Assembly (NCBI GenBank): GCA_944325145.1
Contig: CALYDL010000003.1
Span: 30,559-94,558 of the forward strand
Length of the DNA stretch: 64,000 bases
DNA from: Candidatus Gastranaerophilales bacterium
Lineage (GTDB): Bacteria > Cyanobacteriota > Vampirovibrionia > Gastranaerophilales > Gastranaerophilaceae
Direction: 5' to 3'
Of this stretch, positions 5,208 to 49,322 are shown one piece after another. Positions within the stretch are counted from its first letter, which is position 1. Every line of letters starts with the position of its first letter. Below the pieces are notes generated by a model, which was not told the DNA's origin, searched no databases, and saw nothing but the letters and a program-made list of their open reading frames with translations. The translations under genes were made by a program, and so were the position numbers.

Positions 5208-6510
5208 TAATTGAAGAATTGATGTTTTCTAATCTTTCAATTCTTTCTTTAAGTGCGCCGATTGGTTTATAATATGGTTCTACCGTCATAATTTTTGCTG
5301 CAATATTCGGGTAGAAATAAATAAACCTTAATTCACTTTTTGTTAAAGGCTTTTGAGTGTGAACGTTAGCGTATCTTGCAAGTTCTAAGATGTTTCTTGC
5401 TTCTTCTTCGTCTTTAAATTCAAGTTCTAAGTTTTGATATACGTTTCTAAAACCTTTAATACCTGAATATTCGCCAACTGTAATCATTCTGCCTGTTTCA
5501 ATGATTTCAGGTTCGCCTTTTCCAAGTTCTTCATAATCGTAAAGTTCATAATTTCTTCTGTCTTTTAAGGCGCCATCTGCGTGGATGCCAGATTCATGCG
5601 CAAAAGCGTTGTCGCCAACTGCAACTTGGTTCATAGGAATTGCAACGCCAAAAGCGTAAGCTGTATATTTTGCTAATTTCCAAGCTTTTGATAAATCAAT
5701 TTGAGGGTCAATTTGGTATTTGCCTTCAAAGCCTGAAGATTTTAAAATTGCAAGAATACAAGAAATTAAATCTGCGTTGCCGGCACGTTCTCCCATGCCG
5801 TTTATTGCTGTATTTATCCAAGGGGTAACGCCCGCATCAACTGCTGCTTTTGCACCCATAACAGAGTTTGCAACGGCCATGCCTAAGTCGTTATGGAAGT
5901 GAAGTTCAATATCCATATTTGTTTCTTTTGCAAGGGTGTAAATTCTGTCATATGCTGTTTTTGGGTCGTCATAACCTAAGGTGTCACAATATCTGAACCT
6001 TTTTGCGCCATATCTTTTGCATTCATTTGCATATTTAATAAGGTAGTTTAAATCTGACCTTGAGGCGTCTTCTGCGTTAACGCCGATTATATTTGCATTG
6101 TTTTTAACGGCTTCATTCACTGCTTCTAATGTTTGAGCTAAAATGTCATCTTTTGTTTTTTTGCCGCCGTATTTACCGTTTATCATTTGATCTGATGTAG
6201 ATTGCGACAAATTAATGTTCTTTAATTTAGGAACATTTTTAAAAGATTTATCAACATCTGATGCCAATGCTCTTGACCACCCTGATAAAATTGTTTTATC
6301 AATGGCGCCCCTTTCAACGAGCATTATGTTGCCGTTCAAGTAATTAATTTCATGGCAAGTTGTCGGGAAACCAAACTCTGATTGGGTTATTCCCATATCG
6401 TTTAACATAAGATTTATTATTGTTTTTTGAAGTTTAGCTAAACCAAGCCTTGATGTTTGAACACCGTCACGATTTGTAACATCTACAAATTTAATGTAAT
6501 TTTCAGTCAT
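5200..6510 (-). CDS. HMGL-like 2-isopropylmalate / homocitrate / citramalate synthase family protein
   Basis: 436 aa. DVTNRDGVQ, HFHNDLGMAVAN, HESGIHADG. No long LeuA regulatory domain, so substrate not assignable. Overlaps miaB by 8 nt. Confidence 0.8.
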   Translation of the reverse strand: MTENYIKFVDVTNRDGVQTSRLGLAKLQKTIINLMLNDMGITQSEFGFPTTCHEINYLNGNIMLVERGAIDKTILSGWSRALASDVDKSFKNVPKLKNINLSQSTSDQMINGKYGGKKTKDDILAQTLEAVNEAVKNNANIIGVNAEDASRSDLNYLIKYANECKRYGAKRFRYCDTLGYDDPKTAYDRIYTLAKETNMDIELHFHNDLGMAVANSVMGAKAAVDAGVTPWINTAINGMGERAGNADLISCILAILKSSGFEGKYQIDPQIDLSKAWKLAKYTAYAFGVAIPMNQVAVGDNAFAHESGIHADGALKDRRNYELYDYEELGKGEPEIIETGRMITVGEYSGIKGFRNVYQNLELEFKDEEEARNILELARYANVHTQKPLTKSELRFIYFYPNIAAKIMTVEPYYKPIGALKERIERLENINSSIIV

Positions 6511-9316: not shown

Positions 9317-9781
9317 TTAACTTCTCCTTAATTATATATATTAAATTACTTATTTCGACACAAAAAATTTCTTATTCATTTAAAACACAAAAACATTTTT
9401 TTTGCACATGGAAAAATAAAAGTCAAATTTTTGTTAAGAAATGTTAAAATTAAATTTCAAGTATAGATTAATAGTTCTCTATCTTTAAAAAAACAATTGC
9501 ATTTTTTATGTTAAGTAATATGAACAATGTAGGACAAAAACCAAAAAAAATGGTAATATAAATGCATAAAGTGTTCTTTTTACCCATTAAGGGTAAAGCA
9601 GGAAATAGAGATTAATTAACAATAGAAGATATGAAGTTTCGTTAAGCATTGCAACATAAATAAGTCAATTTTTAAGGGAAAAAATTTTTAAAATATATGT
9701 GAAGTGTTTTAGACCTTCGTGTCTTAGTGTCTCAAAAAAAGTAAGAAGTGAAGAAATTGTTATTTGGAGGAATCTGATTAT

Positions 9782-10636
9782 ATGACAATTAGTGTGAACA
9801 ACCGCAAAAAACAGGCTAAAAAAACATTTGATGAATTAATTAAAGATTTACAAACGTCTAATTCAGAAAAAGTTCGTTATAATGCTGCAAGAGTTCTTGG
9901 TGAAATGGGCGATTTTAAGGCCGTTAAACCATTAATCGATGTTTTAAAATATGATAAAAACGGTTCAGTTCGTTTATATGCCGCACGTGCATTGGGCGAA
10001 TTGGGCGATACAAACGCAACTGTTCCTTTAATTGAATCTTTAAGAGAAGATAGAAACGTTGACGTTCGTGTTCGTGCAGCAAGAGCATTAGGCCGTTTGG
10101 GCGGTGCAATTGTTGTAGAACCCCTTGTTGAAGCACTTAATGATGAAAACCCTCAAGTTTGTATTACTGCAACCGATGCCCTAATTGAAATCGGCGATGT
10201 TGCAGCAGATGCTTTAATTGAATCACTTGACCATGAAAAAGTTAACGTTAGATGCGATGCTACAAGAGCATTGGGTGAAATTGGCAACAGAAAAGCTGTT
10301 GAAAAAATTATCACAATGTTAAAAGATGAATGGGTTAACGTTAGAATTTATGCCGTAACTTCACTCGGTAAATTAGGCGATACAAAAGCAGTTCCTGCTT
10401 TAATTGAAGTTATGGAAGATAAAAATGAAAACGACTTGGTTAGAGCTGGTGCAGCAGCTGCACTCGGCGTTTTAAGAGACCAAAGAGCCCTTCTTCCTTT
10501 AAGAAAATTAATTATTGAAGCTGAAGAACTTGGCGAACTTGAAGATACAGCTTTGAAATCATTCAAGAAAATTATGGCTGCTAACTGGGAATCAATCCCC
10601 GGTGCTGCACCCGTTAAAAAACCGGCTTTATTCTAA
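9782..10636 (+). CDS. HEAT-repeat (PBS-lyase type) protein
   Basis: Repeated about 31-aa units (VRxxAARALGExGDxxAVxPLIxxL). GGAGG upstream of ATG 9782. Confidence 0.8.
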   Translation: MTISVNNRKKQAKKTFDELIKDLQTSNSEKVRYNAARVLGEMGDFKAVKPLIDVLKYDKNGSVRLYAARALGELGDTNATVPLIESLREDRNVDVRVRAARALGRLGGAIVVEPLVEALNDENPQVCITATDALIEIGDVAADALIESLDHEKVNVRCDATRALGEIGNRKAVEKIITMLKDEWVNVRIYAVTSLGKLGDTKAVPALIEVMEDKNENDLVRAGAAAALGVLRDQRALLPLRKLIIEAEELGELEDTALKSFKKIMAANWESIPGAAPVKKPALF

Positions 10637-10800: not shown

Positions 10801-11841
10801 ATGATACAATTAACGCAAGCGCATATTTTAGGGGCAATCATTGCCTATCTTTTAGGGGTTTTTATAGTTCCCATTGTTATTTATTATTCAGATAAAATGG
10901 GGCTTGTAGATGTTCCAAACGAAAGAAAAATTCACAAAGGAAAAATTTCAAGGCTTGGTGGCATTGGAATTTGGCTTGCCGTTATGCTCACATTTTTGTT
11001 TTTGGTTTTATTAAGCTATTACCCAAAGGGCCAAGGGTTATCGGGCATTATTGTGGGCGGTTCTTTAATGTTTTTATTGGGGCTTATAGATGACCTTTTC
11101 TGTTTGAACGCAAAATTTAAACTCTTTTTGCAAATTGTAATTGCTACAATGGTGCTTTTATTGGGTGTTAGAATAGATGAAGTTTATAACCCGTTTGGAA
11201 ATAATTTTGAACTCGGCCTATTGGCATATCCCATAACCTTGCTTTGGATTGTAGGCATTACAAATGCAATTAATTTTATAGATGGTATAGACGGTTTGGC
11301 AGGTTCTGTTGTTACGATAGGTTCTGTTGCAATTGCGATAATTTCAATTGTTGCAACGCCATCTTCCCCAATTTCTGCTTTGGTTGCAATAATTTTATCA
11401 GGCGCCATGCTTGCATTTTTAACTTTTAATTATAACCCCGCTAAAATTTTTATGGGAGATTCAGGCGCTTTATTTGCAGGGTTTATGTTATCAACCCTTT
11501 CAATTACGGGTATTATGGACGCTGGAACGCCTTTAATGTATCTTCCTTTCTTAATTTTGGCTATTCCAATTTTAGATGTGGCATATTCATCATTAAGGAG
11601 AATTTCAAAAGGAAAAAGCCCTTTTGTTGCAGATTCTGAACACATTCACCACAAATTGCTGCACCACGGGTTTTCGCAAGATTTGGCAGTTTTAACATTG
11701 TCATCTGTTTCAATGGCATGTGCTATTGTTGCAATAATTATTACAGGCTTTTTGAACAGATACTTTATTTTTGCAATTGCACTTGCTTTTGTTCTTTTTC
11801 TTTTAAATGCAGTTTCAAAAACCATTAAGAAAAAAGCGTAA
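10801..11841 (+). CDS. glycosyltransferase family 4 polyprenyl-phosphate sugar-1-phosphate transferase (MraY/WecA/TagO-like)
   Basis: 346 aa, multi-TM. NAINFIDGIDGLA, FMGDSGALFAGF. Its stop codon lies inside the first repeat unit of array A. Confidence 0.85.
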   Translation: MIQLTQAHILGAIIAYLLGVFIVPIVIYYSDKMGLVDVPNERKIHKGKISRLGGIGIWLAVMLTFLFLVLLSYYPKGQGLSGIIVGGSLMFLLGLIDDLFCLNAKFKLFLQIVIATMVLLLGVRIDEVYNPFGNNFELGLLAYPITLLWIVGITNAINFIDGIDGLAGSVVTIGSVAIAIISIVATPSSPISALVAIILSGAMLAFLTFNYNPAKIFMGDSGALFAGFMLSTLSITGIMDAGTPLMYLPFLILAIPILDVAYSSLRRISKGKSPFVADSEHIHHKLLHHGFSQDLAVLTLSSVSMACAIVAIIITGFLNRYFIFAIALAFVLFLLNAVSKTIKKKA

Positions 11842-12226
11842 AGCCAGAGTGAAGGGCAAAATGATGAATTTTGCCCGAAACTGTTGAATTGCGACGTAGG
11901 ATAATCAAAGCTTGTGAGCGACAACGCTAGTGAAAGCGAACAAAAGCTTTGATACCCACAGGAGCAAAAAAGCATAAAGCCGTGTGTGTAGCCGTTAAAA
12001 ATGGCAAGACGTTATCGTCTTGGCATTTTAGGCGAAACCGTACGATGCCGCTGTTATGACGAAGTGAGCAAATGCGAACGAAGGAATGAACAAATCTTAG
12101 TAAAAATAAGAAGCGGTGCGACTTTGTCGCATAAGCTCTATTTTTACTGATTTGACAGGCGGAAAAAAGCATAAAACCAGAGCGAAGCTCAATGCGTTGA
12201 GCATTGAGCACAGCTATTGAATGTAC
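11836..12226 (+). repeat. modular hairpin-repeat array A
   Basis: Starts AGCGTAAAGCCAGAG overlapping the stop at 11839-11841. Contains hairpin 11854-11876, the core CTGTTGAAT..GACGTAGGATAAT..ATACCCACAGGAGC (11881-11965), a long hairpin module (12083-12163) and a further partial unit (12168-12226). Confidence 0.9.
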
Positions 12227-12286
12227 TAAAAAAATAAGTTGGGGCAAAAACCCCAACATATAAATTTTTCTACACGGTTTATTATT

Positions 12287-12314
12287 AAAAAACCCCTTAA
12301 GTTTAAGGGGTTTT
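12287..12314 (-). terminator. intrinsic terminator of leuS
   Basis: AAAACCCCTTAA-GTT-TAAGGGGTTTT just downstream of the leuS stop. Confidence 0.7.
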
Positions 12315-24888: not shown

Positions 24889-25839
24889 ATGAAAAAATAC
24901 AGAATAGGAGTTGATGTTGGCGGCACAAACGTTAAACTTGCGCTTGTAGATTTAAACGGCAAAATAGTTTATTCAAATACAACGCCAACAAGAGCAGACC
25001 TTGGATATGAACATTCAATTGCAAACATTCAAAATGCCATTGAAGAATTAATGAAAGAAACAAACACAAATAAAGATACAGTTGAAGCAATCGGCTTTGG
25101 TTTCCCCGGGCAAATTGATTATACGGCAGGCGTTGTAAGGCTTTTAACAAATATGCCGGGGTGGGTTGAAATTCCTTTGGCAAAAATTATGGAAGATAAA
25201 TTTAAAATTCCAACTAAATTGGATAATGATGTTCGTGTTGCAACGTTAGGCGAATTAAAATATGGTGCCGGCAAAGGCTGCAGCAATTTGGTTTGTATAA
25301 CAGTAGGTACAGGCATTGGTTCGGGGCTTGTTATAAACGGCAAACTTGTTAGAGGTGCAAAAAACGCTGCAGGTGAAATCGGCCACATTAAAATGACTAT
25401 GGGCGATGGCCCCATTTGCGGTTGCGGCGATTACGGGTGCTTAGAAGCTTATGCTTCAGGCCCATCTATTGTAGCTGAAGCAAAAGAATATATTAAAGGC
25501 GGAAAATCATCCAAATTTAAAGAACTTGCAACAGAAGAATTAAGCCCTTATATTGTGGCACAAGCTGCACTTCAAGGGGATGCCGTTGCAAAAAGAATTT
25601 ATGCTAAAATGGGCGAAATAATAGGCCTTGGTTTAACATCAGTTATTAACCTTTTAAACCCTGAAAGAGTTATTATAGGCGGCGGTGTTGCTGATGCAGG
25701 CGATATTTTGTTTAACCCGATTAAAGAAACAATTGCAAAACGTGCAATGCCAATTCAAGCAAAAAGCGTTGAAATTGTTCCTGCGCAATTAGGAAACACA
25801 GCAGGTGTCATCGGCGCAAGCTTATTAATTGAATCGTAA
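24889..25839 (+). CDS. glk: ROK-family glucokinase
   Basis: 316 aa. GVDVGGTNVKL, GTGIGSGLV, Zn motif GHIKMTMGDGPICGCGDYGCLE. Confidence 0.85.
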   Translation: MKKYRIGVDVGGTNVKLALVDLNGKIVYSNTTPTRADLGYEHSIANIQNAIEELMKETNTNKDTVEAIGFGFPGQIDYTAGVVRLLTNMPGWVEIPLAKIMEDKFKIPTKLDNDVRVATLGELKYGAGKGCSNLVCITVGTGIGSGLVINGKLVRGAKNAAGEIGHIKMTMGDGPICGCGDYGCLEAYASGPSIVAEAKEYIKGGKSSKFKELATEELSPYIVAQAALQGDAVAKRIYAKMGEIIGLGLTSVINLLNPERVIIGGGVADAGDILFNPIKETIAKRAMPIQAKSVEIVPAQLGNTAGVIGASLLIES

Positions 25840-25844
25840 AGAAT

Positions 25845-26048
25845 GCGTAAGCCAGAGCGAAGCTCAATGCGTTGAGCATTGAGCGCAGCTGTTGAATGGC
25901 GACGTAGGATAATCAAAGCTTGCGAACGACAACGCTAGTGGAAGTGAGCAAAAGCTTTGATACCCACAGGAGCAAAAAAGCGTAAGCCAGAGTGTAGGCA
26001 GGAGTGTTGAACTCCTGCCGAAACTGTTGATAGCCGCCGTTAAAAAAT
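25845..26048 (+). repeat. modular hairpin-repeat array B
   Basis: GCGTAAGCCAGAGCG starts 6 nt after the glk stop. Contains hairpin 25862-25884, core to 25973 and a second unit with hairpin 25997-26019. Confidence 0.9.
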
Positions 26049-26056
26049 AAAAAAGC

Positions 26057-26086
26057 AAAGCCCATCTTTTTTTGATGGGCTTTTTT
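26057..26086. terminator. bidirectional terminator
   Basis: AAAGCCCATC-TTTTTTT-GATGGGCTTTTTT between convergent glk/array B and the minus-strand pilin gene. Confidence 0.7.
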
Positions 26087-26088
26087 AA

Positions 26089-26101
26089 AATGAAAGGATA
26101 A
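26089..26101. repeat. 13-nt box AATGAAAGGATAA (copy a)
   Basis: On the minus strand it reads TTATCCTTTCATT, 2-3 nt after the stop of pilin 26104..26832. It is the inverted partner of the RBS box at 26837-26848. Confidence 0.7.
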
Positions 26102-26103
26102 TT

Positions 26104-26832
26104 CTATTTCTTAGCCTGAGCCTGATACATCGCTCTTTGCGCTGCAACGCCATAAGGAATTGCAGCTTTTTCTGTAATCATTATAGAAAAAATATCTGTC
26201 AATTTTGTCCCCAAGGGGTCAGCTTGTTTGTAATAGTTGTCAATGGCGCAATCATATGATTTGCAACTTGCATTTTGGGGTGACGGTTTTCTGTCACCGT
26301 TAACATCAACCATAATTATACAAGGTGGTTTTGTTGTGCCATCGGGGTTATTGTTTAATCCATATGATCCACAATAGCAAGGCGTTCCGCCTTCTGCATA
26401 AGTTTTTGTAGTAATAGTGCACAAAGAAATTGCAGGGTTTTCATACAATGGAAAAGATTTTGTATAATGAGGCCCCGACCAATTCCAAAATTCAAAACGC
26501 ATTCCATCCGTAGTATAAAATGCACTATTTCTCCTTTGTCCTTTTGAATCATATGAAATAAATTGCTCAGTCATATGGGGAACAACGCGAGAAACGCTCA
26601 TATGGCGCATTAAAAAAGCCATTAAATCTGCATTATCATAAGGAGATTCGCCATCAATTGCCATATTCATTGTAATGGCACTGTTAAGCACGCTTACTGC
26701 TTTTCTTAATCCTGTTTTAAATTCTTGTTGTTGAGAATTACTGATTACAGATGGTATAGATATTGCTGCAACAACACCAATAATTGCAAGCGTGATAAGC
26801 ACTTCTGCCAGTGTAAAACCTCTTTTTTTCAT
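26104..26832 (-). CDS. type IV pilin-like protein (prepilin N-terminal cleavage/methylation domain), paralog 1
   Basis: 242 aa. MKKRG|FTLAEVLITLAIIGVVAAISIPS, conserved CGSYGLNNNP..PPCIIMVDVNGDRKP and C-terminal AIPYGVAAQRAMYQAQ. Confidence 0.85.
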   Translation of the reverse strand: MKKRGFTLAEVLITLAIIGVVAAISIPSVISNSQQQEFKTGLRKAVSVLNSAITMNMAIDGESPYDNADLMAFLMRHMSVSRVVPHMTEQFISYDSKGQRRNSAFYTTDGMRFEFWNWSGPHYTKSFPLYENPAISLCTITTKTYAEGGTPCYCGSYGLNNNPDGTTKPPCIIMVDVNGDRKPSPQNASCKSYDCAIDNYYKQADPLGTKLTDIFSIMITEKAAIPYGVAAQRAMYQAQAKK

Positions 26833-26836
26833 AAAC

Positions 26837-26848
26837 TATCCTTTCATT
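26837..26848. repeat. box TATCCTTTCATT (copy b), the RBS region of pilin paralog 1 on the minus strand
   Basis: Minus strand reads AATGAAAGGATAGTTTATG. Confidence 0.7.
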
Positions 26849-26919
26849 GTTTTGTTTATTATTCTTTTGCTTTTTTTACTTTTCTTCTTTTTCATCTTTT
26901 ATTTTTTTATCTACCAAAA

Positions 26920-27213
26920 TACTTTTAAAATCATCTGTCTCTACCGAAAGGTGAAGTGGAGGGGCGAGAGTGACCTTTTTTGGGTTTAACATATCACTTT
27001 TAAAATTAATCTTCTTAATTAATAACGCAGCCCCGACTCTGAACAACTTAGGGGACAGATGATTTTAAAAGAAAAGATTAAACTTATTCATTAAGCCTTG
27101 TTTTCTTTTCTTTTTGGTTCGTTTTTCTTTTCTTTGATAGGCGTATGAAAAAAGAAAAGAAAAATGAACGAAAGGAAAAAAATACCTTTCAATAAAAGTT
27201 GGTTTTAAAAGTA
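26920..27213. promoter_or_regulatory. pilin-upstream segment S (locus 1), inverted relative to its homolog at locus 2
   Basis: Plus-strand sequence is homologous to plus-strand 47895-48148, although this pilin gene is on the minus strand. Outer 11-bp IR TACTTTTAAAA (26920-26930) / TTTTAAAAGTA (27203-27213). Inner perfect 18-bp IR 26922-26939 / 27054-27071. Confidence 0.8.
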
Positions 27214-27224
27214 CGAGCTACTTT

Positions 27225-27415
27225 CAAACGCAACAAAATATTCATTATGTTGTAATGGGCTGAAAAAGCTTGAATTAATTGAATGAAAGAAAGTTAAAAA
27301 TATAAAAATAAATAAAAAACCAAACCTTGAAGAAAGGTTTAAAGAATGGTATTATAAAGAAAAGAAAACAAAATGCACCAAAATGAATATTATGGTGCAT
27401 TTTTATTTATTAAAA
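27225..27415. promoter_or_regulatory. conserved far-upstream block X of pilin locus 1
   Basis: Aligns by eye to the reverse complement of 47690-47875, so it has the same orientation relative to each pilin gene. Confidence 0.7.
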
Positions 27416-27439
27416 AACCGCCTTTTTAGGCGGTTTTTA
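27411..27439 (-). terminator. intrinsic terminator of recA
   Basis: AAAAACCGCCTAAAAAGGCGGTTTTTT on the minus strand, directly after the recA stop. Confidence 0.75.
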
Positions 27440-27448
27440 TGGTTTTGA

Positions 27449-28507
27449 TTAAGCTTCTTCTTTAACTTCAACTTTATTATTATTTGCCAATTTTTCCCTT
27501 ACTTTTTGTTCAATTTCTTTTAAAAGTTCGGGGTTTTCAGATAAAAATTCTTTTGATTTATCTCTGCCTTGGCCTAATTTTTCATCGTTATAGCTAAACC
27601 ATGCGCCTGCTTTTTTCACAATATCCATATTAACGGCAACATCTAAAATGTTTCCTATTGCGCAAATGCCTTTACCGTATACAATGTCAAATTCTGCTGT
27701 TCTAAAAGGCGGCGCTACTTTGTTTTTAGCAACTTTAACTCTTACACGGTTTCCTATATCTTCGCCTTCTTTATTTTTAACAGAATCAAATCTTCTTATG
27801 TCTAAACGAACTGAAGCATAATATTTAAGGGCATTACCACCTGTTGTTGTTTCGGGGTTACCATACATAACGCCGATTTTTTGCCTTAATTGGTTAATGA
27901 AAATAACGGTTGTGTTGGTTTTGCCTACAATTGCGGTTAATTTTCTTAAAGCTTTGCTCATAAGCCTTGCTTGAAGCCCCATTTGCTGTTCATCCATTGC
28001 TTTTTCAATTTCGGCTTTCGGAACAAGAGCAGCAACTGAGTCTATAACAATAACATCAATTGCGCCACTTCTTACAAGTTCTTCTGCAATTTCCAGGGCT
28101 TGTTCGCCTGTGTCAGGTTGAGATATTAAAAGTTCATCAACATTAACGCCCAAATTTCTTGCATATTCAGGGTCTAGAGCATGTTCAGCGTCTATAAAAG
28201 CTGCAATGCCCCCTCTTTTTTGGGCTTCAGCTACAATATGCTGAGCTAATGTCGTTTTACCTGATGATTCAGGCCCATAAATTTCAATAATTCTTCCCCT
28301 TGGAACGCCGCCAACGCCAAGGGCTATATCAAGCGCCAAGGCGCCTGTTGGAATGCAATCCACTTGAACTGAGGGTCTATCCCCCAATTTCATAATAGAA
28401 CCTTTTCCGTAATCTTTTTCAATTTTATCTAAAGCCATTTTTAAGGCTTTGTCTTTTCCTGCTTTTATTTCATCTATTGCATCTTTTGCTTTTGTTTCAG
28501 CTGCCAT
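27449..28507 (-). CDS. recA: recombinase A
   Basis: 352 aa. Walker [30 protein letters not shown]. Confidence 0.97.
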
Positions 28508-32966: not shown

Positions 32967-33743
32967 ATGTTAAAAATTATGTGCCCTGCAAAAATAAATT
33001 TAACTCTAAAAGTTTTTAAAAAAGATGAAATAACAGGCTTTCACCCAATAAAAAGCATAATGCAGACAGTAAGCCTTTTTGATTATTTAACTTTTGAATT
33101 AACAAATTCAGGAAAAATTGAATTAACGGGCAATAACAATGAAATTGAATATAACGAAAACAATTTAATAATAAAAGCGGCGCTTGAATTTTATAAAAAA
33201 ACAAACTTGCCTATCTTGGGGCTTAAAATTTATTTAGAAAAAAATATCCCGATAGCAGCAGGCTTGGCAGGCGGTTCAACAGACGCTGCAGGCACAATTT
33301 TTGCCCTTAATCAATTGCACAATAACATTTTAAAAAAAGAAGAAATATTCGAAATTAATTCAAAACTTGGTTCAGACATTAATTTTTGCTATTTTGGGGG
33401 AAAAGCGCTTGCTGAAGGCAAAGGCGACAATTTAACCCCCCTTGAATTTGAACCGTTTAATTTAACAATTATAAAGCCAAAAAACCTTAAAATTTCAACA
33501 AAACTTGCCTATGAAACTTTTGATAATTTGAAAGAAACATCAAACTTAAAAAACGACCTTGAATTTGCCATGCTGCCACATTATAAAGAACTTCAAACCC
33601 TTCATAATCTTGGTTTTCAAATGTCAGGCTCTGGGCCTTCGTTTTTCATTTTAAATAAAACCATAAATGAAACCCTTAAAACCCAAGAATATCAAGTTTT
33701 TGAAAACCTAAGGGCAACAAAAAAAGGTGTTGAAATTGTTTAA
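32967..33743 (+). CDS. ispE: 4-diphosphocytidyl-2-C-methyl-D-erythritol kinase
   Basis: 258 aa. PAKINLTLKV, GHMP motif IPIAAGLAGGSTDAA. Confidence 0.9.
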   Translation: MLKIMCPAKINLTLKVFKKDEITGFHPIKSIMQTVSLFDYLTFELTNSGKIELTGNNNEIEYNENNLIIKAALEFYKKTNLPILGLKIYLEKNIPIAAGLAGGSTDAAGTIFALNQLHNNILKKEEIFEINSKLGSDINFCYFGGKALAEGKGDNLTPLEFEPFNLTIIKPKNLKISTKLAYETFDNLKETSNLKNDLEFAMLPHYKELQTLHNLGFQMSGSGPSFFILNKTINETLKTQEYQVFENLRATKKGVEIV

Positions 33744-33942
33744 AATCAACAAAATTTCCCGTTCGGGAAAATTTACCACTTTTTAACCCCAAAAACAATA
33801 AAAATTTCCCGTTCGGGAAAATTTACCCTTTTTTATCTCCAAAAACAATAAAAATTTCCCGCTTTTGGAAAATTCCTTCAATTGTCTTTTAAATAAAGCT
33901 TACCAGCCCCATTTTATATGCCCGAATTTTGCTATTTTATAA
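33741..33942 (+). repeat. left direct repeat with three palindromic boxes
   Basis: TTTCCCGTTCGGGAAA at 33755-33770 and 33805-33820. Variant TTTCCCGCTTTTGGAAAA at 33855-33872. Tail ..CCAGCCCCATTTTATATGCCCGAATTTTGCTATTTTATAAT. Confidence 0.9.
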
Positions 33943-34162
33943 TATTATTATGTAGTAATTAATAAATATTATGCTAATGTTAACAAATGTTTCAAAATTA
34001 AAGATTGTAAAAAGCTGTCCTATCCTACAAATAGACCAAACTTACAACAAAAAAAGTAAAAAATGTTATAATTCTATTGTGCAGGACCGATTGATGCAAA
34101 CTTTCGTCATTGTTTGTGTTAAGCTATTATTGATGTGTTTTGAATGGATACAAGAGGCTTAA

Positions 34163-36569: not shown

Positions 36570-36577
36570 AATAATTT

Positions 36578-36774
36578 CCTAAAATTTTCCCGTTCGGTAA
36601 AATTATAACCTTTTTTAACATTAAAATCAACAAATTTTCCCGTTCGGGAAATTTTACCACTTTTTAACCCCAAAAATAATAAAAAATTTCCCGCTTTTGG
36701 AAAATTCCTTCAATTGTCTTTTAAATAAAGCTTTCCAGCCCCATTTTATATGCCCGAATTTTGCTATTTTATAA
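36578..36774 (+). repeat. right direct repeat with three palindromic boxes
   Basis: TTTTCCCGTTCGGTAAAA at 36585-36602, TTTCCCGTTCGGGAAA at 36636-36651, TTTCCCGCTTTTGGAAAA at 36687-36704. Same tail as the left repeat. Lies between divergent hipB and the recombinase gene. Confidence 0.9.
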
Positions 36775-36809
36775 TTTTTATATGCGGTAAATAACCAAAA
36801 GGGGCAATT

Positions 36810-39660: not shown

Positions 39661-39758
39661 AATAATCATTGAAAGACAGCACATTCTCAAACGAATCACC
39701 ACACTAAGTTAAACATTAACAACGAGAGAACCAAGTGAAATAAAATTTAAAAAATCAC

Positions 39759-39786
39759 TTGACAATAAATTTTGAGATGTTAAGCT
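39759..39786 (+). promoter_or_regulatory. rRNA promoter candidate P2
   Basis: TTGACA, 16 nt spacer, TAAGCT, preceded by an A-run. Shares the ..CTTGAC..TTGAGATG.TAAG.. frame with P3 and P4. Confidence 0.55.
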
Positions 39787-39873
39787 GTTAAAGCTGACCT
39801 TTTACAAGCTAACATTTTAAACTGGAAAAATTTCTCAAGTTTCAACAATTAAGTTGATTTAAAAAATAACCGC

Positions 39874-39901
39874 TTGACATTAAAACTTGAGATGATAAGC
39901 T
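39874..39901 (+). promoter_or_regulatory. rRNA promoter candidate P3
   Basis: TTGACA, 16 nt spacer, TAAGCT, preceded by AAAAAATAACCGC. Confidence 0.55.
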
Positions 39902-39972
39902 TGTTAAGCACGGGTTACCAAAACCCAAAATCTTGAGTGTAAACTTAAGTTAAGAAAATAAAAAATTAACGC

Positions 39973-40000
39973 TTGACTTTAAAACTTGAGATGATAAGAT
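39973..40000 (+). promoter_or_regulatory. rRNA promoter candidate P4
   Basis: TTGACT, 16 nt spacer, TAAGAT, preceded by AAAAAATTAACGC. Confidence 0.6.
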
Positions 40001-40097
40001 ACTAAAGGCGGTTGAAACGCCTTCTGGTAAAGGGATGGTTAAAGCTGATTAAAGGCTTATTTTAAAGCGCCCTTTATAATGTAAAAGATTTATTCTT

Positions 40098-40109
40098 GAA
40101 CATTGAAAA
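40098..40109 (+). promoter_or_regulatory. BoxA-like antitermination motif in the rRNA leader
   Basis: GAACATTGAAAA, compared with the cyanobacterial BoxA GAACCTTGAAAA. Confidence 0.5.
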
Positions 40110-40235
40110 TAGAATAACATAATACAAACGACAAATACCTGTTGATTTTTTTAAGAAAAACAATCGGACAAAAGCTAAAGCTTTAAATTTTGAGTCAATC
40201 ACTTCTTTCTGAAGTGTCAGACATAAATTTCTGAC

Positions 40236-41754
<1,519 letters not shown>

Positions 41755-41944
41755 TAGGGAGATTTCGGTAGCGATTGAATTTCAATCAGCGTATAAAACC
41801 GACATCCCAAGGTCGATACCGATATAAAGATTAATTTGTTTATGATTGTTTTATCAAGTTAATCAAGGTATCAAAAAAATCGACAGGTATTTGCAGTTTG
41901 TTTTTGTTTATGTTATTCTTCTTTCAGTGTTCAAACTGAAAACC

Positions 41945-41956
41945 GCACATTGAAAA
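41945..41956 (+). promoter_or_regulatory. BoxA-like motif in the 16S-23S spacer
   Basis: GCACATTGAAAA, just 5' of the outer 23S processing-stem strand. Confidence 0.45.
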
Positions 41957-42040
41957 TTACATATAGATAATAAGCGTAAGTTAACTAAATCGAAATTATT
42001 TTCTGAAAAGTTAATAACGTAATTGAACCAATGTAAGAAA

Positions 42041-42169
42041 GCGTAAGCCGGTGCTGATATGAGCCGTGTTGAACGGCGAATGAAGCACTACGATGGCGAC
42101 GTAGGATAATTGAACCTTGCGAACGACAGCGAATGCGAAGTGAGCAAAAGGTGAAATACCCACAGGAGC
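42041..42169 (+). repeat. diverged copy (E) of the hairpin-repeat core inside the 23S leader
   Basis: GCGTAAGCCGG..hairpin GCCGT-GTTGA-ACGGC (42063-42077)..GGCGACGTAGGATAAT..GCGAAC..GTGAGC..ATACCCACAGGAGC. Confidence 0.85.
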
Positions 42170-42187
42170 CATAAAAGGTTTACGACA

Positions 42188-45192
<3,005 letters not shown>

Positions 45193-45311
45193 TGAATCTT
45201 AGCAAAACACCAAAATGCTAAGTTTATTGGTTCAAAATATTATCTGTATGTAACTTTCAGCGTGTTGGCTGTGAGTTCAATCTCAAAATCAGCTGAACAC
45301 TAACCGGATTT

Positions 45312-45427
45312 TCTGGTGGCCAGGCGGCAGGATCCCACCCGTTCCCATCCCGAACACGGTCGTAAAGACTGCTTGCGCTGACAATACTTGGAGGGTAGCC
45401 TCCTGGGAAGATAAGTAGCTGCCAGAT
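45312..45427 (+). rRNA. rrf: 5S ribosomal RNA
   Basis: TCTGGTGGCC..CCCGTTCCCATCCCGAACACGG..GCTGCCAGA; termini pair. Confidence 0.9.
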
Positions 45428-45443
45428 TCTATATTTAAAAAAA

Positions 45444-45476
45444 TAACCTTTAAGAAATATCTTAGAGGTTATTTTT
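45444..45476 (+). terminator. rRNA operon terminator
   Basis: TAACCTTTAAG-AAATAT-CTTAGAGGTTA followed by TTTTTT. Confidence 0.7.
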
Positions 45477-45500
45477 TATCTATTTTTTATATCAGCCTTC

Positions 45501-45670
45501 GCTCCCCCTCACAATACTTTTAGGGTAGTCGCTCCTTTTGAAGATAAAGTAGCTTTCAAATTCTATATTAAAAAAAAGTAACCTTTAAGAATTATCTTAG
45601 AGGTTATTTTTTATCTATTTTTTTATCAGCCTTCGATTCCCCTAACAATACTTTTAGGGTAGTCGCTTTT
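45501..45670 (+). repeat. degenerate tandem copies of the 5S 3' half plus terminator
   Basis: CACAATACTTTTAGGGTAGTCGCTCCTTTTGAAGATAAAGTAGCTTTCAAATTCTATATT.. mirrors 45380-45500, including a second terminator hairpin at about 45578-45611. A third partial copy starts about 45634. Confidence 0.8.
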
Positions 45671-45699
45671 ACTATTTATGTTTTTCTTCTCCAAACTTT

Positions 45700-46072
45700 A
45701 AAAGTTCAAACGGTTCAACACCTAATTTATCTGCTTGTTTTGCCTCTGTTAATTCTGAAGTATTTGATATTGATGAAAACCAAACAGTTACTGTTTGTGG
45801 CGGCTGTGGTTCATATGGAATGAAGCATAATCCAAATAGTACAAATAAAGTTCCTTGTGCAATTATAGTTGATGTAAATGGTGACAGAAAGCCTACACCA
45901 CAATTTGCTTGTGCAACTGAAGAAGAATGTGGAAGTAATAGTTTTAAATATTTTTCACCTGATATTAAAACTAAAAAAAATCCATGATATTTTTACGATT
46001 TTAATCACTGAAGATAGGGCAATTCCCTATGGCGTTGCAGCGCAAAAAGCTATGTATCAAGCACAGAAATAG
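45700..46072 (+). pseudogene. 5'-truncated, frameshifted pilin paralog
   Basis: Encodes ..VTVCGGCGSYGMKHNPNSTNKVPCAIIVDVNGDRKPTP.., then stops after an A8 run (45973-45980). The +1 frame continues DIFTILITEDRAIPYGVAAQKAMYQAQK*. No N-terminal prepilin segment. 5' boundary approximate. Confidence 0.8.
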
Positions 46073-46090
46073 TTTATTTTGGTGCTAAAT

Positions 46091-46545: not shown

Positions 46546-47280
46546 ATGTATAAATTAAAAGCTTTCACACTGGCAGAAGTTTTAATAACTCTTGCTATCA
46601 TTGGCGTAGTTGCAGCAATATCTATTCCAAGTGTTATTTCAAACTCTCAACAACAAGAATTTAAAACTGGATTAAGAAAAGCCGTCAGCGTGCTAAATTC
46701 AGCTATTACTATGAATATGGCAATTGATGGCGAAACACCATATGAAAATAAAGATTTATACTATTATCTACAAAGGCATATGGGGGTTTTAAAAACAACG
46801 TTAAGGATGCCATATAATACAGTAACAAAAAGGAATGACGGCAGAACTAATTCAAATACTGACAATGCTGCTTTTTATACAACAGATGGTTTTAGATATG
46901 AATTTAACATCTCAAAAGTTGGTGACACCGCAGAAACACTAAAACTCCATGAAAGCAACGTTTATGCTTGTTCGGCAACTCACCCTGTAAATTTAGGCTG
47001 GGTTACTTGCGGCGGGTGCGGTAGCTATGGGCTAAACCATAATCCAAATGGCACAACAAAACCCCCTTGTCTTATTATGGTTGATGTAAACGGCGATAAA
47101 AAACCAACGCCATCAAATGTTAATTGCCAAAGTCCGGAGTGTGTTTCTCAAAATTTGTACAAAGTGCCACTTCCGGCTGAAAAGAAAGTTCGCGATATAT
47201 TTTCAATTTTAATAACAGAAGATAGGGCGATTCCTTACGGGGTGACAGCACAAAAAGCAATGTATCAGGCACAAAAGTAA
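46546..47280 (+). CDS. type IV pilin-like protein, paralog 2
   Basis: 244 aa. MYKLKA|FTLAEVLITLAIIGVVAAISIPS (Ala at -1), CGGCGSYGLNHNPNGTTKPPC, C-terminal AIPYGVTAQKAMYQAQK. Confidence 0.85.
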   Translation: MYKLKAFTLAEVLITLAIIGVVAAISIPSVISNSQQQEFKTGLRKAVSVLNSAITMNMAIDGETPYENKDLYYYLQRHMGVLKTTLRMPYNTVTKRNDGRTNSNTDNAAFYTTDGFRYEFNISKVGDTAETLKLHESNVYACSATHPVNLGWVTCGGCGSYGLNHNPNGTTKPPCLIMVDVNGDKKPTPSNVNCQSPECVSQNLYKVPLPAEKKVRDIFSILITEDRAIPYGVTAQKAMYQAQK

Positions 47281-47281
47281 T

Positions 47282-47620
47282 GCGTAAGCCAGAGCGAAGC
47301 TCAATGCGTTGAGCATTGAGTGCAGCTGTTGAATGGCGACGTAGGATAATCAAAGCTTGTGAGCAAGAACGCAAGTGAAAGCGAACAAAAGCTTTGATAC
47401 CCACAGGAGCAAAATAAAAGGTGTGTGAAGTTTTTAAAGTGTGATGAACACTTTAAAAACGAAACCGTTCCAAACCGCCGTTATGAAGCGGAGTTGAAAA
47501 CGAAGCGGAATGAACAAATCTTAGTAAAAATAAGAAGCGGTGCGACTTTGTCGCATAAGCTCTATTTTTACTGATTTGACAGGCGGAAGAAAGAAAGCAT
47601 AAAGCCAGATTGGAAATAAT
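47282..47620 (+). repeat. modular hairpin-repeat array C
   Basis: GCGTAAGCCAGAGCG starts 2 nt after the pilin stop. Contains hairpin 47299-47321, core to 47410, hairpin with TGATGAA loop at about 47431-47459, and the long hairpin module 47507-47587. Confidence 0.9.
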
Positions 47621-47635
47621 TTTATCCTTTCATTT
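47621..47635. repeat. box TTTATCCTTTCATTT (copy c)
   Basis: Complement of the pilin RBS box. Sits between array C and the terminator. Confidence 0.7.
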
Positions 47636-47640
47636 ATAAA

Positions 47641-47675
47641 AGCTCAAAGAATTATTCTTTGAGCTTATTTTTTTT
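47641..47675 (+). terminator. intrinsic terminator
   Basis: AGCTCAAAG-AATTATT-CTTTGAGCT followed by TATTTTTTTT. Confidence 0.75.
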
Positions 47676-47689
47676 ACCCATAAAAAATG

Positions 47690-47875
47690 CCCCATAATGT
47701 TCATTATGTTGCATTCAAGTTCTATAACCTTATATTATCATTATTTTAACCTTTGTTCAAGACTTGTTTTTTTATTATTTTTTATATTTTTCATTTTCTT
47801 TCATTCAATAATATCAACATTTTCTACCCCAACGCAACAAATTGAACATTTTGTTGCGTTTAAAAATTAATCGCA
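47690..47875. promoter_or_regulatory. conserved far-upstream block X of pilin locus 2
   Basis: Reverse complement aligns by eye to 27225-27415. Confidence 0.7.
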
Positions 47876-48175: not shown

Positions 48176-48907
48176 ATGAAAAGATTTTATGGGTTTACAT
48201 TAGCGGAAGTGCTTATCACGCTTGCTATCATTGGCGTAGTTGCCGCAATTTCTATTCCAAGTGTTATTTCAAACTCTCAACAACAAGAATTTAAAACAGG
48301 CTTAAGAAAAGCAGTTTCTGTTTTAAATAGTGCCATAACTATGAATATGGCAATAGATGGCGAAACACCATATGATAATAAAGATTTATTTGGATATTTA
48401 ACAAGACATATGAGCACCTTGAAAGCTCCTGCAACAATTGATTTTGCTTATTATTATAAGTCTCATGACGGCAGCGTGACTGTTGGCGGACATAATTATG
48501 GTTTTTATACAACTGATGGTATTAGATTTGAGTATTATGGTTCTGCAAAAAATACCAATTTCCCTGGGCCAAAACTTCATGAAAGCGGTGTTAGGTCGTG
48601 TGTAAATAATGCTGATGGTTTTTGCGGCGGTTGTGGGTCATATGGCCTCAATCATAATCCCAATGGTACAACTAAACCCCCATGCGCTATTTTAGTTGAT
48701 GTAAATGGCGACAAAAAACCATATCCGGGCAATGTAAATTGCAAGTGGGCAGATGGTGTGAAATGTTTTGGTAAATATAATGTATTAAAAGGCCCGCTTC
48801 CGGGTGAAAAGAAAATTAAAGATATTTTTACAATTTTAATCACAGATGAAAAAGCCATTCCCTATGGCGTAACTGCGCAAAAGGCAATGTATCAGGCACA
48901 GAAGTAA
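48176..48907 (+). CDS. type IV pilin-like protein, paralog 3
   Basis: 243 aa. MKRFYG|FTLAEVLITLAIIGVVAAISIPS, CGGCGSYGLNHNPNGTTKPPC, C-terminal AIPYGVTAQKAMYQAQK. Confidence 0.85.
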   Translation: MKRFYGFTLAEVLITLAIIGVVAAISIPSVISNSQQQEFKTGLRKAVSVLNSAITMNMAIDGETPYDNKDLFGYLTRHMSTLKAPATIDFAYYYKSHDGSVTVGGHNYGFYTTDGIRFEYYGSAKNTNFPGPKLHESGVRSCVNNADGFCGGCGSYGLNHNPNGTTKPPCAILVDVNGDKKPYPGNVNCKWADGVKCFGKYNVLKGPLPGEKKIKDIFTILITDEKAIPYGVTAQKAMYQAQK

Positions 48908-48908
48908 T

Positions 48909-49135
48909 GCGTAAGCCAGAGCGAAGCTCAATGCGTTGAGCATTGAGCGCAGCTGTTGAATGGCGACGTAGGATAATCAAAGCTTGTGAGCAAGAACGCA
49001 AGTGAAAGCGAACAAAAGCTTTGATACCCACAGGAGCAAAATAAAAGGTGTGTGAAATTTTTAAAGTGTGATGAACACTTTAAAAATGAAACCGTTCCAA
49101 GCTGCCGTTATGAAGCGAAGTTGAAAACGAAGGAA
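48909..49135 (+). repeat. modular hairpin-repeat array D
   Basis: GCGTAAGCCAGAGCG starts 2 nt after the pilin stop. Contains hairpin 48926-48948 and core to about 49037. Same as array C but lacks the long hairpin module. Confidence 0.9.
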
Positions 49136-49143
49136 AAAACAAA

Positions 49144-49157
49144 TTTATCCTTTCATT
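49144..49157. repeat. box TTTATCCTTTCATT (copy e)
   Basis: Between array D and the terminator. A degenerate further copy, TATCTTTTCATTC, is at 49261-49273. Confidence 0.7.
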
Positions 49158-49162
49158 AAATA

Positions 49163-49192
49163 AGCTCATCATTTGATGGGCTTTGCTTTTTT
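49163..49192 (+). terminator. intrinsic terminator
   Basis: AGCTCATC-ATTT-GATGGGCT followed by TTGCTTTTTT. Confidence 0.65.
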
Positions 49193-49322
49193 ATTAAAGG
49201 CAGTTGGTTGTTGGGCTGAAAGCCCAACCTATTTTCTAGAAAGGCTGAGATAGCTTAATTTATCTTTTCATTCATAAAAGCCCATCATTTGATGGGTTTT
49301 ATTTTTGTTCATAACAATATTT

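Follow-up and report, generated by a model that had tools for sequence, protein, structure and literature searches.

Modular structured repeats behind stop codons and in the pre-23S leader form a clade-wide, uncatalogued family in Gastranaerophilales

The window analysed here is the whole stretch of 64,000 nucleotides (nt) taken from contig CALYDL010000003.1 of a Candidatus Gastranaerophilales bacterium (assembly GCA_944325145.1); the Gastranaerophilales are gut bacteria and non-photosynthetic relatives of the cyanobacteria. Four intergenic arrays of a repeated element lie in the window on the + strand, with their units head to tail, and each begins on a stop codon or 0-4 nt past it, in the places where the first-pass annotation, made from the letters alone, had put them. 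Array 1 (11835-12223) follows a GT4 transferase gene (10801-11841), array 2 (25844-26042) starts 4 nt past the stop of a ROK glucokinase gene (24889-25839), and arrays 3 (47281-47611) and 4 (48908-49135) stand directly behind the TAA of two paralogous pilin-like genes (46546-47280 and 48176-48907). The gene labels agree with Pfam, which returns Glycos_transf_4, ROK and N_methyl, and one array does overlap a stop as had been described, the GT4 gene ending on the TAA inside AGCGTAAAGCC. A further complete unit lies in the 16S-23S spacer of the ribosomal RNA (rRNA) operon. As shown below, the element belongs to a lineage-specific, clade-wide family of modular structured repeats under selection for their sense-strand structure. 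The coordinates of all units are collected in Table 1.

The family is uncatalogued. Over the whole window only rRNAs pass the gathering score of Rfam 15, and when 47200-47700 was searched at E up to 10 the best overlapping match reached 18.7 bits against a threshold of 75.9, with no ribozyme model among the matches; full-text literature searches by clade, topic and invariant sequences found no description of the element. The earlier statement that it is not a named family is thus upheld by the lack of an Rfam 15 match, of terminal inverted repeats and of target duplications. An exact-pattern scan covering one genome per species returned 97 loci, in which all named records are animal-gut metagenome-assembled genomes of Gastranaerophilales/Melainabacteria, and two viral contigs carry the element. 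A covariance model, a check proposed with the first-pass annotation, was built on 35 copies and searched in the 97 loci and, with filters off, in the window, giving 146 matches in loci plus window. Five full copies were recovered in the window (E = 1e-25 to 1e-28) and beyond them D1-only pieces (D1 being the first domain of the unit, see below), all on the + strand; on the - strand nothing scored better than E = 0.59, leaving no antisense copy. Within the same window GGCGACGTAGGATAAT has 5 matches against 0.22 expected, and ATACCCACAGGAGC has 6, of which 5 are exact, against 0.09 expected.

Comparison of more than 100 copies resolves the unit (94-170 nt) into a first domain (D1) and a second domain (D2), the latter in types A and B. 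D1 starts with (A/U)GCGUAAGCC, a mini-hairpin of two pairs with a GNRA-type loop (GC-GUAA-GC), in which the loop varies among GUAA, GUGA, GCAA and GAUA and the closing pairs covary. The mini-hairpin is followed by helix P1 (e.g. GGUGC/GCACU), usually with one variable hairpin that has a G(U/A)UGA (GWUGA) pentaloop, and then by the linker ACGAU-N; in a short form of D1, P1 stands alone and is closed by a GAA loop. D2 of type A is an irregular rod clamped by the invariant GCGACGUAGGAUAAU and AUACCCACAGGAGC, the clamp being a five-pair GCGAC/GGAGC helix with a central tandem G.A, after which the rod continues through GUAGG/CCCAC, an internal loop, AU(Y)/(R)AU and another tandem G.A (YGAG/CGAR) into a distal part with variable stems, more tandem G.A pairs and a GNRA-type apical loop. 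Type B, which is present in other species also and occurs whole and truncated in the window arrays, is a three-way variant composed of a CCGCC/GGCGG clamp, a hairpin and AAAUC-UUU-GAUUU before (G/C)ACAGGCGG. Short A-runs link successive units head to tail (GGAGC-AAAA-AGCG). About 45 nt in internal loops and junctions are invariant and the stems covary. The variable D1 hairpins had been correctly located in the first-pass annotation (11854-11876, 25862-25884, 25997-26019, 47299-47321, 48926-48948 and, with the stem GCCGT/ACGGC, 42063-42077), as had the inner hexamers of D2, which read GTGAGC..GCGAAC in three copies and GCGAAC..GTGAGC in two; its module boundaries differ from the structural domains, however, since CTGTTGAATG, which comprises the 3' strand of P1 and the linker, falls within D1. 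Reading frames of the repeat close after 2, 10 and 13 codons, and the antisense open reading frames (ORFs) that run over the arrays (11646-11975, 11927-12259 and 47120-47404) were taken as repeat artefacts and not as genes. Folding of single sequences sometimes pairs GCGUAAGCC with GGCGACGUA over a long range; this helix was rejected, the linker N before GCGAC showing no covariation and the GC-loop-GC of the mini-hairpin covarying. At locus L031 (170-320, - strand) a normal D1 is followed by a third kind of 3' domain ('type C'), made up of GCGAUACCCACA, a hairpin, AAUACCCUUGGGGUGCGUAG and AAAUCUUUGAUUUUACAGGAGC, in which type A and type B motifs are mixed in a different order.

Evidence that the fold is under selection comes from compensatory change. 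In an alignment of 134 distinct copies fitted to the model with its 20 pairs, 97.5% of the pair cells are standard, as against 80% in partner shuffles and 27-52% with slid partners, double changes occur at 17 of the 20 pairs, and double-change cells number 403 compared with 118 in the shuffles. Because this alignment was fitted to the model, an alignment-free control was run in which the 5' half of one copy's hairpin was joined to the 3' half of another's. Such chimeras lose about half of the folding energy, falling from -19.6 to -10.2 kcal/mol for D1 and from -11.3 to -6.7 kcal/mol for D2, and single copies fold with z-scores of -3 to -5. With 17 pairs doubly changed and this loss of energy in the chimeras, the earlier argument from whole-stem compensation to structural selection stands. 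Judged by their substitutions, the non-canonical pairs also take part in helices: the tandem G.A at the foot of the D2 stem becomes A-U/A-U in the dispersed copies of the window, the G.A/A.G of the clamp becomes Watson-Crick pairs in type B, and in the minimal D2 of locus L061 (GCGAC GUGGGAC GAA GUCCCUC A GGAGC) the GUAGG/CCCAC stretch is replaced by the almost fully paired GUGGGAC/GUCCCUC with one U.U mismatch. Compared with its complement, the sense strand gives the more stable fold in 94 of 105 copies (mean difference of 4.6 kcal/mol), the tandem G.A and GNRA motifs behind this difference being present on one strand only; counting of G.U pairs was uninformative as a strand test, the sense fold having fewer of them.

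The position of the arrays relative to genes was scored with a simple ORF caller over all loci (113 arrays, with an upstream ORF callable for 97). The upstream ORF is on the same strand for 67 of the 97 arrays and on the opposite strand for 30, and about 15 of these 30 are short forms that serve as leaders in sense to a downstream transposase gene. Together with the lack of antisense copies in the window this agrees with the earlier claim that the copies follow the sense of the upstream gene. Copies equally frequent in both orientations and without covariation, or a MITE (miniature inverted-repeat transposable element) with terminal inverted repeats and target-site duplications, had been named in advance as outcomes that would speak against the proposed family; the copies were found to be biased in orientation and to covary, and neither mark of a MITE was seen. 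Distances from stop codon to element peak at -7 (13 arrays, in which the gene ends on the TAA of the element itself) and at 0-2 nt, and about 45 of the 67 same-strand arrays start within 16 nt of the stop. Convergent genes flank 21 arrays; 12 of these begin no more than 8 nt from the stop of the sense gene, and in none does the end come within 30 nt of the stop of the antisense gene. The nearest opposite-strand ORF comes within 10 nt of an array end in a single case. At the other end of the unit, AGGAG precedes a start codon by 4-11 nt in the transposase leaders and at loci L027 and L084.

In the window, intrinsic-terminator hairpins with T-runs follow arrays 2, 3 and 4; behind array 1 stand two hairpins, the second of them terminator-like, with a bidirectional terminator near 12288-12311. 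Just 5' of intrinsic terminators we also noted the motif TTATC(C/T)TTTCATT (47622-47634, 49145-49157 and 49260-49272 on the + strand, 26089-26101 on the - strand), which is always in the sense of the terminated gene, occurs also behind a gene with no array, is similar to the anti-Shine-Dalgarno end of 16S (CCUCCUUUC) and has complementarity to AGGAUAA in the element. Four paralogous pilin-like genes are present (45700-46071, 46546-47280, 48176-48907 and 26104-26832). The three on the + strand have conserved C-terminal coding ends, and arrays stand behind two of the three only, the first (ending at 46073) abutting a convergent helix-turn-helix (HTH) gene.

The best-scoring copy of the window (120 bits) is the unit in the 16S-23S spacer. 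Its variable hairpin had been placed at the right coordinates in the first-pass annotation; it is not an isolated hairpin but part of a complete unit (42040-42169). In the predicted fold of the 23S flanks this unit lies within the pre-23S processing stalk, and its predicted closing helix (CGUAAGCC/GGUUUACG) lies 2-3 nt before 23S. A targeted metagenome scan found the two other lineages L099 and L100 to have a copy at the homologous site as well; in these the first 600 nt of 23S are 85% identical to those of the window and 93% identical to each other, the upstream flank of the copy is homologous (ACGUAA..AACCAAUGUAA) and GGCATACG stands in the place of GGTTTACG. Across the three lineages the D2 clamp blocks are identical at 29/29 nt and the 10-nt 5' motif at 9/10 (its first base is A or T), whereas the D1 bodies are 45-58% and the D2 hairpins 56-70% identical, and each version still folds. 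The L100 spacer holds an additional D1 + type B unit. The 16S leader of the window has no copy by the covariance search, and ARAGORN finds no tRNA gene in the 16S-23S spacer and no tRNA-like or tmRNA-like element anywhere in the window, the only such hits in the loci being genuine tRNA-Arg genes beside some units.

A boxA-like CATTGAAAAT, which we take to resemble cyanobacterial boxA, is found separately both in the leader of 16S and in the spacer, the latter occurrence supplying the 5' strand of the 23S stalk; the stalk strand CAUUGAAAAUUNCAUA resembles the boxA-D4 region of cyanobacterial spacers, in which case the unit would stand at the variable V3 position. A boxA was also considered for TGAACCTTG in the spacer copy and dismissed, that stretch being merely a variable outer stem (YGAG + stem) that differs in other copies. 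The promoter and boxA region of the operon takes in 39745-40007, 40104-40120 and 41948-41972, with three tandem promoter-like repeats (CGCTTGACA..N..GATGATAAG) ahead of 16S. The stretch behind 5S (45437-45700) holds a tandemly repeated unit of about 135 nt in two copies, in each of which a strong terminator hairpin (AAAAAATAACCTTTAAGAAATATCTTAGAGGTTATTTTTT) precedes a degenerate duplicate of the 3' end of 5S (CAATACTTTTAGGGTAGTCGC...). The invariant blocks of the element have no meaningful match to 16S, 23S or 5S, the array tail resembles the 23S trailer only in a short AATCTTAG match, and an origin of the dispersed copies as rRNA-operon fragments was rejected, none of the first 97 loci carrying rRNA.

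Elsewhere in the clade the element is found in several further contexts. A Mu/Tn7-like element shared by about 15 species-level genomes has the short form as a leader, placed behind three GTCGGAA repeats and ahead of the ATG of a gene for a Mu-type DDE transposase (Mu-transpos_C + rve), after which comes a TniB-like ATPase gene; AGGAG lies 4-8 nt before that ATG, and the stems of these leader copies differ compensatorily. At L011 (2480-5330, with 14 related loci) the transposase has 656 amino acids, divergent HTH repressor and short tyrosine-recombinase genes lie upstream, and a SIR2-like gene lies downstream. In two species the element is inside the infA-rpmJ-rpsM-rpsK-rpsD-rpoA operon, arranged as rpmJ-[unit]-rpsM-[minimal unit]-rpsK-rpsD in L061 and as rpmJ-[unit]-rpsM-(empty)-rpsK-[unit]-rpsD in L022, where the first motif of the second unit overlaps the last rpsK codons (CGC GTA TAG CC; L061 has AGA GTA TAA there). 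It follows from these insertions that the transcription of an essential operon is not stopped by the element. On a phage contig a unit lies between two co-oriented genes and its TAA is the stop codon. Upstream of tRNA-Arg(UCU) three species have a tandem arrangement of leader, first 17 nt of the tRNA and element (L016 2208-2458, L039 3606-3960 and L073 7101-7443), in which each partial tRNA copy is followed by a unit or, once (L073), by an unrelated 67-nt insert; the locus looks like repeated insertion at the D-loop position with the gene restored. At two further loci (L031 621-778 and L024 ~6280-6440) a full unit lies within a 17-nt inverted repeat (AGGTCGGAA..ATGC / GCAT..TTCCGACCT) that shares the word GGTCGGAA with the transposon-end repeats, possibly as a miniature derivative or as an extra closing helix.

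The arrays themselves are shuffled at the strain level. Contigs of different samples that encode an identical Glk protein have different arrays behind the gene (D1a+A/D1b+B-stub, D1b'+A/D1b+B-stub, D1c+B, D1b+B'/D1b+B'' and others), and in the leuS-GT4 interval (identical LeuS protein) the outer junctions and some inner blocks are identical while units have been added or exchanged, with breakpoints within shared invariant blocks and A-rich linkers. The 5' junction is always at the stop codon and the last units are cut at arbitrary points; within the window, the 3' 80 nt of the type B domain of array 3 (47507-47586) are identical to 12083-12162. Several contigs end inside arrays, and the occurrence of arrays behind many genes explains the assembly breaks after genes in these genomes. 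Both flanks of the element are A-rich. No terminal inverted repeat was found, the 5' end AGCGTAAGCC... being unrelated to the reverse complement of the 3' end ...GCTCCTGTGGGTAT, and no target-site duplication beyond chance, the longest flank repeats matching those of randomly re-paired flanks except for the linkers of tandem arrays. Similarity clustering of the flanks of the 113 arrays revealed no recurrent neighbour gene apart from the Mu/Tn7-like element. Relative to the window (26050-27450), locus L102 with an identical Glk lacks the pilin-like gene 26104-26832 and has recA directly next, L116 has a different neighbour beside leuS, and a search for strains through ORF 9764-10636 found no exact record.

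Taken with these data, we consider it somewhat more probable than its alternatives combined that the element is a transcribed, modular structured-RNA repeat with a cis role at the RNA level as an end-module, a reading we favour because it fits the 3' untranslated region (UTR) arrays, the operon spacers, the transposase leader and the pre-23S leader. Its probable function is that of a module for RNA ends, RNA processing or RNA stability. Its sites would all be untranslated parts of transcripts in the sense orientation, namely 3' UTRs from stop to terminator, operon spacers, the transposase leader, a phage-cluster spacer and the 23S leader. The fold would be a self-contained, compact module, probably nuclease-resistant or protein-binding, with the single-stranded A-rich linkers on either side as endonuclease entry sites, and it would mark or stabilise RNA ends such as the mRNA 3' end behind a stop, cistron borders and the 5' flank of pre-23S. 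The clamp helix may keep AGGAG masked, and where a gene starts 4-11 nt downstream AGGAG may be its ribosome-binding site; transposase synthesis is commonly limited by masking of the ribosome-binding site. The arrays turn over quickly as units recombine with one another at shared invariant blocks and A-rich linkers. The first-pass proposal of a structured RNA or mosaic-element family under structural selection is supported by this analysis, in a wording that covers benefit to the host as well as the element's own spread, and had missed the conserved pre-23S copy, the clade-wide distribution, AGGAG as ribosome-binding site, the phage and transposon copies and the strain-level shuffling.

Several points weigh against a role as an RNA end-module. 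It is drawn from anatomy, covariation, strand and position bias, spacer conservation and strain-level shuffling, which are observed, while transcription, interaction with a nuclease or protein and an effect on expression are all inferred, and the covariation counts come from an alignment that was fitted to the model and contains related sequences. Presence or absence at orthologous operon spacers varies by species, so that single sites are dispensable; the strain-variable content and arbitrarily cut last units mean that no particular array composition is required; and one phage copy (L111) is the exception in lying antisense to both neighbour genes. The sense orientation in the window coincides with positive GC skew, and hence with the probable leading strand, so that the window alone cannot separate transcription from replication, a distinction that the codon-level locking does make. 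The spacer copy could also stay intact through frequent conversion between copies, with no role in rRNA maturation.

The main rival holds that the units are selfish, non-autonomous mobile DNA of a REP/REPIN- or MITE-like kind, with hairpins recognised by a trans-acting transposase or recombinase, possibly on single-stranded DNA, and that their place in transcripts is merely where insertions are tolerated. A multi-copy element confined to one clade, whose arrays break assemblies, differ in unit content between strains and come and go at orthologous operon spacers, fits this view, as do copies on Mu/Tn7-like transposon and phage contigs, the two loci with a unit between inverted GGTCGGAA/TTCCGACC repeats and the duplicated tRNA 5' pieces beside units at the tRNA-Arg locus, and orientation could follow the replication strand. 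Yet terminal inverted repeats and target-site duplications beyond chance are lacking, the sole recurrent neighbour is a transposon in which the unit is internal, the units are strictly head to tail and never form inverted pairs, and their start is locked in sense to stop codons at single-nucleotide precision. The tandem G.A and GNRA motifs moreover allow only one strand to fold well, and at one rRNA-spacer site the invariant blocks are fully kept across 15% 23S divergence. We therefore regard mobile DNA as possible but rather unlikely.

Some features would suit a catalytic or substrate RNA. Roughly 45 invariant loop and junction nt combined with covarying stems are typical of catalytic or ligand-binding RNAs, the units are tandem and head to tail with A-rich linkers, and copies lie in stable-RNA precursors (the 23S and tRNA-Arg leaders); from the sequence we nevertheless think it distinctly improbable that the unit is a self-cleaving ribozyme or a dedicated endonuclease substrate that is cut at its borders, frees unit-length RNAs and defines the 5' flank of pre-23S, given that no Rfam ribozyme model matched even at E up to 10 and that truncated and D1-only units persist. 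It is unlikely, if a little less so, that such a ribozyme or dedicated substrate of one endonuclease would constitute an RNA punctuation device of a new class, cut at the A-rich borders and thereby defining mRNA 3' ends at stops, separating cistrons, releasing stable RNAs of unit length from the arrays and setting the pre-23S 5' flank order-wide. The spacer before 23S, the leader of a transposable element's early operon and long essential operons are likewise sites at which a processive antitermination or RNA-polymerase-modifying RNA conferring resistance to terminators or Rho might be expected (cf. lambda nut, HK022 put and rrn boxB-boxA), and the variable D1 hairpin with its conserved GNRA-like pentaloop recalls boxB. 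Most copies, however, are in 3' UTRs directly before intrinsic terminators, at transcription-unit ends between convergent genes, a separate boxA-like CATTGAAAAT is already present in the 16S leader and spacer, and the 16S leader has no copy; we consider antitermination very doubtful. Finally, the location behind stop codons in gene orientation, a structure kept with variable stem sequence and strain-variable gene content beside arrays (the glk-side pilin-like gene absent in L102, the differing neighbour in L116) bring to mind the attC sites of a gene-cassette system, which are folded single-stranded DNA behind genes and are used by a site-specific recombinase. The element ends in GCGTAAGCC and ACAGGAGC with no inverse core RYYYAAC, core GTTRRRY or end-to-end palindrome, has copies in the rRNA spacer and a ribosomal-protein operon, and forms multi-unit arrays with no genes between units; no integron-type integrase was noticed beside the arrays, where flanks were compared by pairwise similarity only. 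An attC-like site is so improbable that we give it almost no weight.

By analogy, the elements that appear closest in function are REP/BIME, BOX, MIRU and the mosaic elements of Neisseria. MIRUs lie in the orientation of their flanking genes, and the Neisseria elements form mosaic intergenic arrays, often beside surface-protein or pilin genes, that are prone to recombination, as is the case here. We know of no sequence relation between BOX and the present element, which are set apart by description, and of no precedent for a copy of such a repeat in an rRNA leader. As a functional analogy only, flavivirus exonuclease-resistant RNAs (xrRNAs) and dumbbells are also duplicated compact folds soon after a stop codon, in strain-variable number; they are viral and of unrelated fold.

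REP/BIME sequences are high-copy extragenic stem-loops in 3' UTRs or between cistrons, often near the stop (within about 15 nt, compared with a start within 16 nt for about two-thirds of our same-strand arrays), and form mosaic clusters of strain-variable composition; REP is co-transcribed, which for the present element is an inference (REP properties partly from PMC3184786). REPs are single GTAG-headed palindromes of 20-40 nt, whereas the element has a two-domain fold with its invariant nt, and the GTAGG it contains lies inside the internal loop of the D2 rod and not at a 5' head. REPs furthermore occur in both orientations and as inverted pairs and are tied to RAYT transposases, in contrast to the strictly head-to-tail, sense units described here, which also include a conserved pre-23S leader copy. 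The BOX elements of Streptococcus pneumoniae (PMC3184786) are similar in their modular boxes, variable number of internal modules and predicted RNA structure, and are transcribed, but are thought to be mobilised by an insertion-sequence transposase, and no stop-codon locking, rRNA-spacer copy or comparable invariant loops have been described for them. MIRUs (PMC3184786) are tandem direct repeats in operons that are transcribed, vary in copy number between strains and overlap the codons of their neighbours with their ends, a feature shared by the element through its own TAA as stop in 13 arrays and AGGAG 4-11 nt before start codons. They differ in being 40-100 bp long and in having small ORFs for translational coupling and, at filled sites, short direct repeats, whereas the three frames of the element close within 13 codons, its stem variation is compensatory and not codon-like, and it has no flank repeats. 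NIME/dRS3 and Correia elements of Neisseria have inverted repeats (dRS3; terminal inverted repeats and a TA duplication for Correia) of which the element has none, and Correia elements are co-transcribed and undergo RNA-level processing (PMC3184786). MITEs in general (Correia, ERIC, RUP, Nezha) are set apart by terminal inverted repeats and target-site duplication, both lacking here. Because the element fails the defining tests of REP/BIME, BOX, MIRU and the Neisseria elements, we class it among the transcribed intergenic mosaic repeats, with an unusually rich RNA architecture.

The known transcribed repeats (REP, BOX, MIRU and Correia) are simple palindromes or elements with terminal inverted repeats, while the present element has the complexity of a riboswitch or ribozyme in its invariant internal-loop nt (about 45), several GNRA-type loops, tandem G.A pairs and two exchangeable 3' domains. 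It is a candidate for a new RNA-protein or RNA-nuclease system in an uncultured gut lineage whose RNA biology is almost unknown, and would represent a new class if it proved to be a true processing or catalytic RNA. The strain-variable arrays could serve as typing markers.

Table 1. Units of the element and associated features in the window (D1 and D2, first and second domain; A and B, types of D2)
Feature	Coordinates	Strand	Description
Array 1	11835-12223	+	D1+A, D1+B, D1
Array 1, unit 1, D1	11835-11890	+	AGCGTAAAGCC mini-hairpin, P1, hairpin GGGCAAAAT/ATTTTGCCC, GATGA loop
Stop codon of GT4 gene	11839-11841		TAA, within array 1 unit 1
Array 1, unit 1, D2 type A	11891-11965	+	GCGACGTAGGATAAT, rod hairpin, ATACCCACAGGAGC
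Array 1, unit 2, D1	11971-12047	+	GCATAAAGCC, GTGTGTG-type P1, long hairpin
Array 1, unit 2, D2 type B	12048-12162	+	CCGCT/GGCGG clamp, hairpin with tandem G.A pairs; further part AAATCTT...GATTTGACAGG with inserted hairpin
Array 1, unit 3	12168-12223	+	D1 only; array stops exactly where D2 would start
Array 2	25844-26042	+	D1+A, D1+B stub
Array 2, unit 1, D1	25844-25898	+	
Array 2, unit 1, D2 type A	25899-25973	+	Inner hexamers swapped, GCGAAC...GTGAGC
Array 2, unit 2	25979-26042	+	D1, hairpin GGCAGGAGT/ACTCCTGCC, plus 9-nt type B D2 stub CCGCCGTTA (26034-26042)
Array 2, terminator	26057-26086		
16S rRNA	40234-41753		
Pre-23S stalk, 5' strands	41943-41972 and 42023-42033	+	Predicted partners 45238-45268 and 45225-45235
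Spacer unit	42040-42169	+	Complete D1 + D2 type A in 16S-23S spacer; ends 17 nt before 23S 5' end
GGTTTACG	42176-42183	+	Predicted partner of unit 5' motif CGTAAGCC (42042-42049)
23S rRNA	42188-45194		
5S rRNA	45312-45427		
Array 3	47281-47611	+	D1+A, D1 (5'-truncated)+B, D1 stub
Array 3, unit 1, D1	47281-47335	+	
Array 3, unit 1, D2 type A	47336-47410	+	
Array 3, unit 2, D1	47420-47474	+	Without 5' mini-hairpin; GGTGTGTGAAG, GATGA-loop hairpin, CGAAACCGTTCCAAA
Array 3, unit 2, D2 type B	47475-47586	+	
Array 3, third-unit stub	47596-47611	+	AGCATAAAGCCAGAT
Array 3, TTATCCTTTCATT motif	47622-47634		Followed by intrinsic terminator
Array 3, intrinsic terminator	47640-47666		
Array 4	48908-49135	+	D1+A, D1 (5'-truncated)+B (truncated)
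Array 4, unit 1	48908-49037	+	D1 48908-48962, D2 type A 48963-49037
Array 4, unit 2	49047-49135	+	5'-truncated D1 49047-49101, truncated type B D2 49102-49135
Array 4, TTATCCTTTCATT motif	49145		Followed by terminator
Array 4, terminator	49162-49183		

A separate repeat family is present in the window at 33742-33962 and 36573-36794, about 2.8 kb apart, and consists of 50-nt tandem units with a TTTCCCGTTCGGGAAA hairpin.

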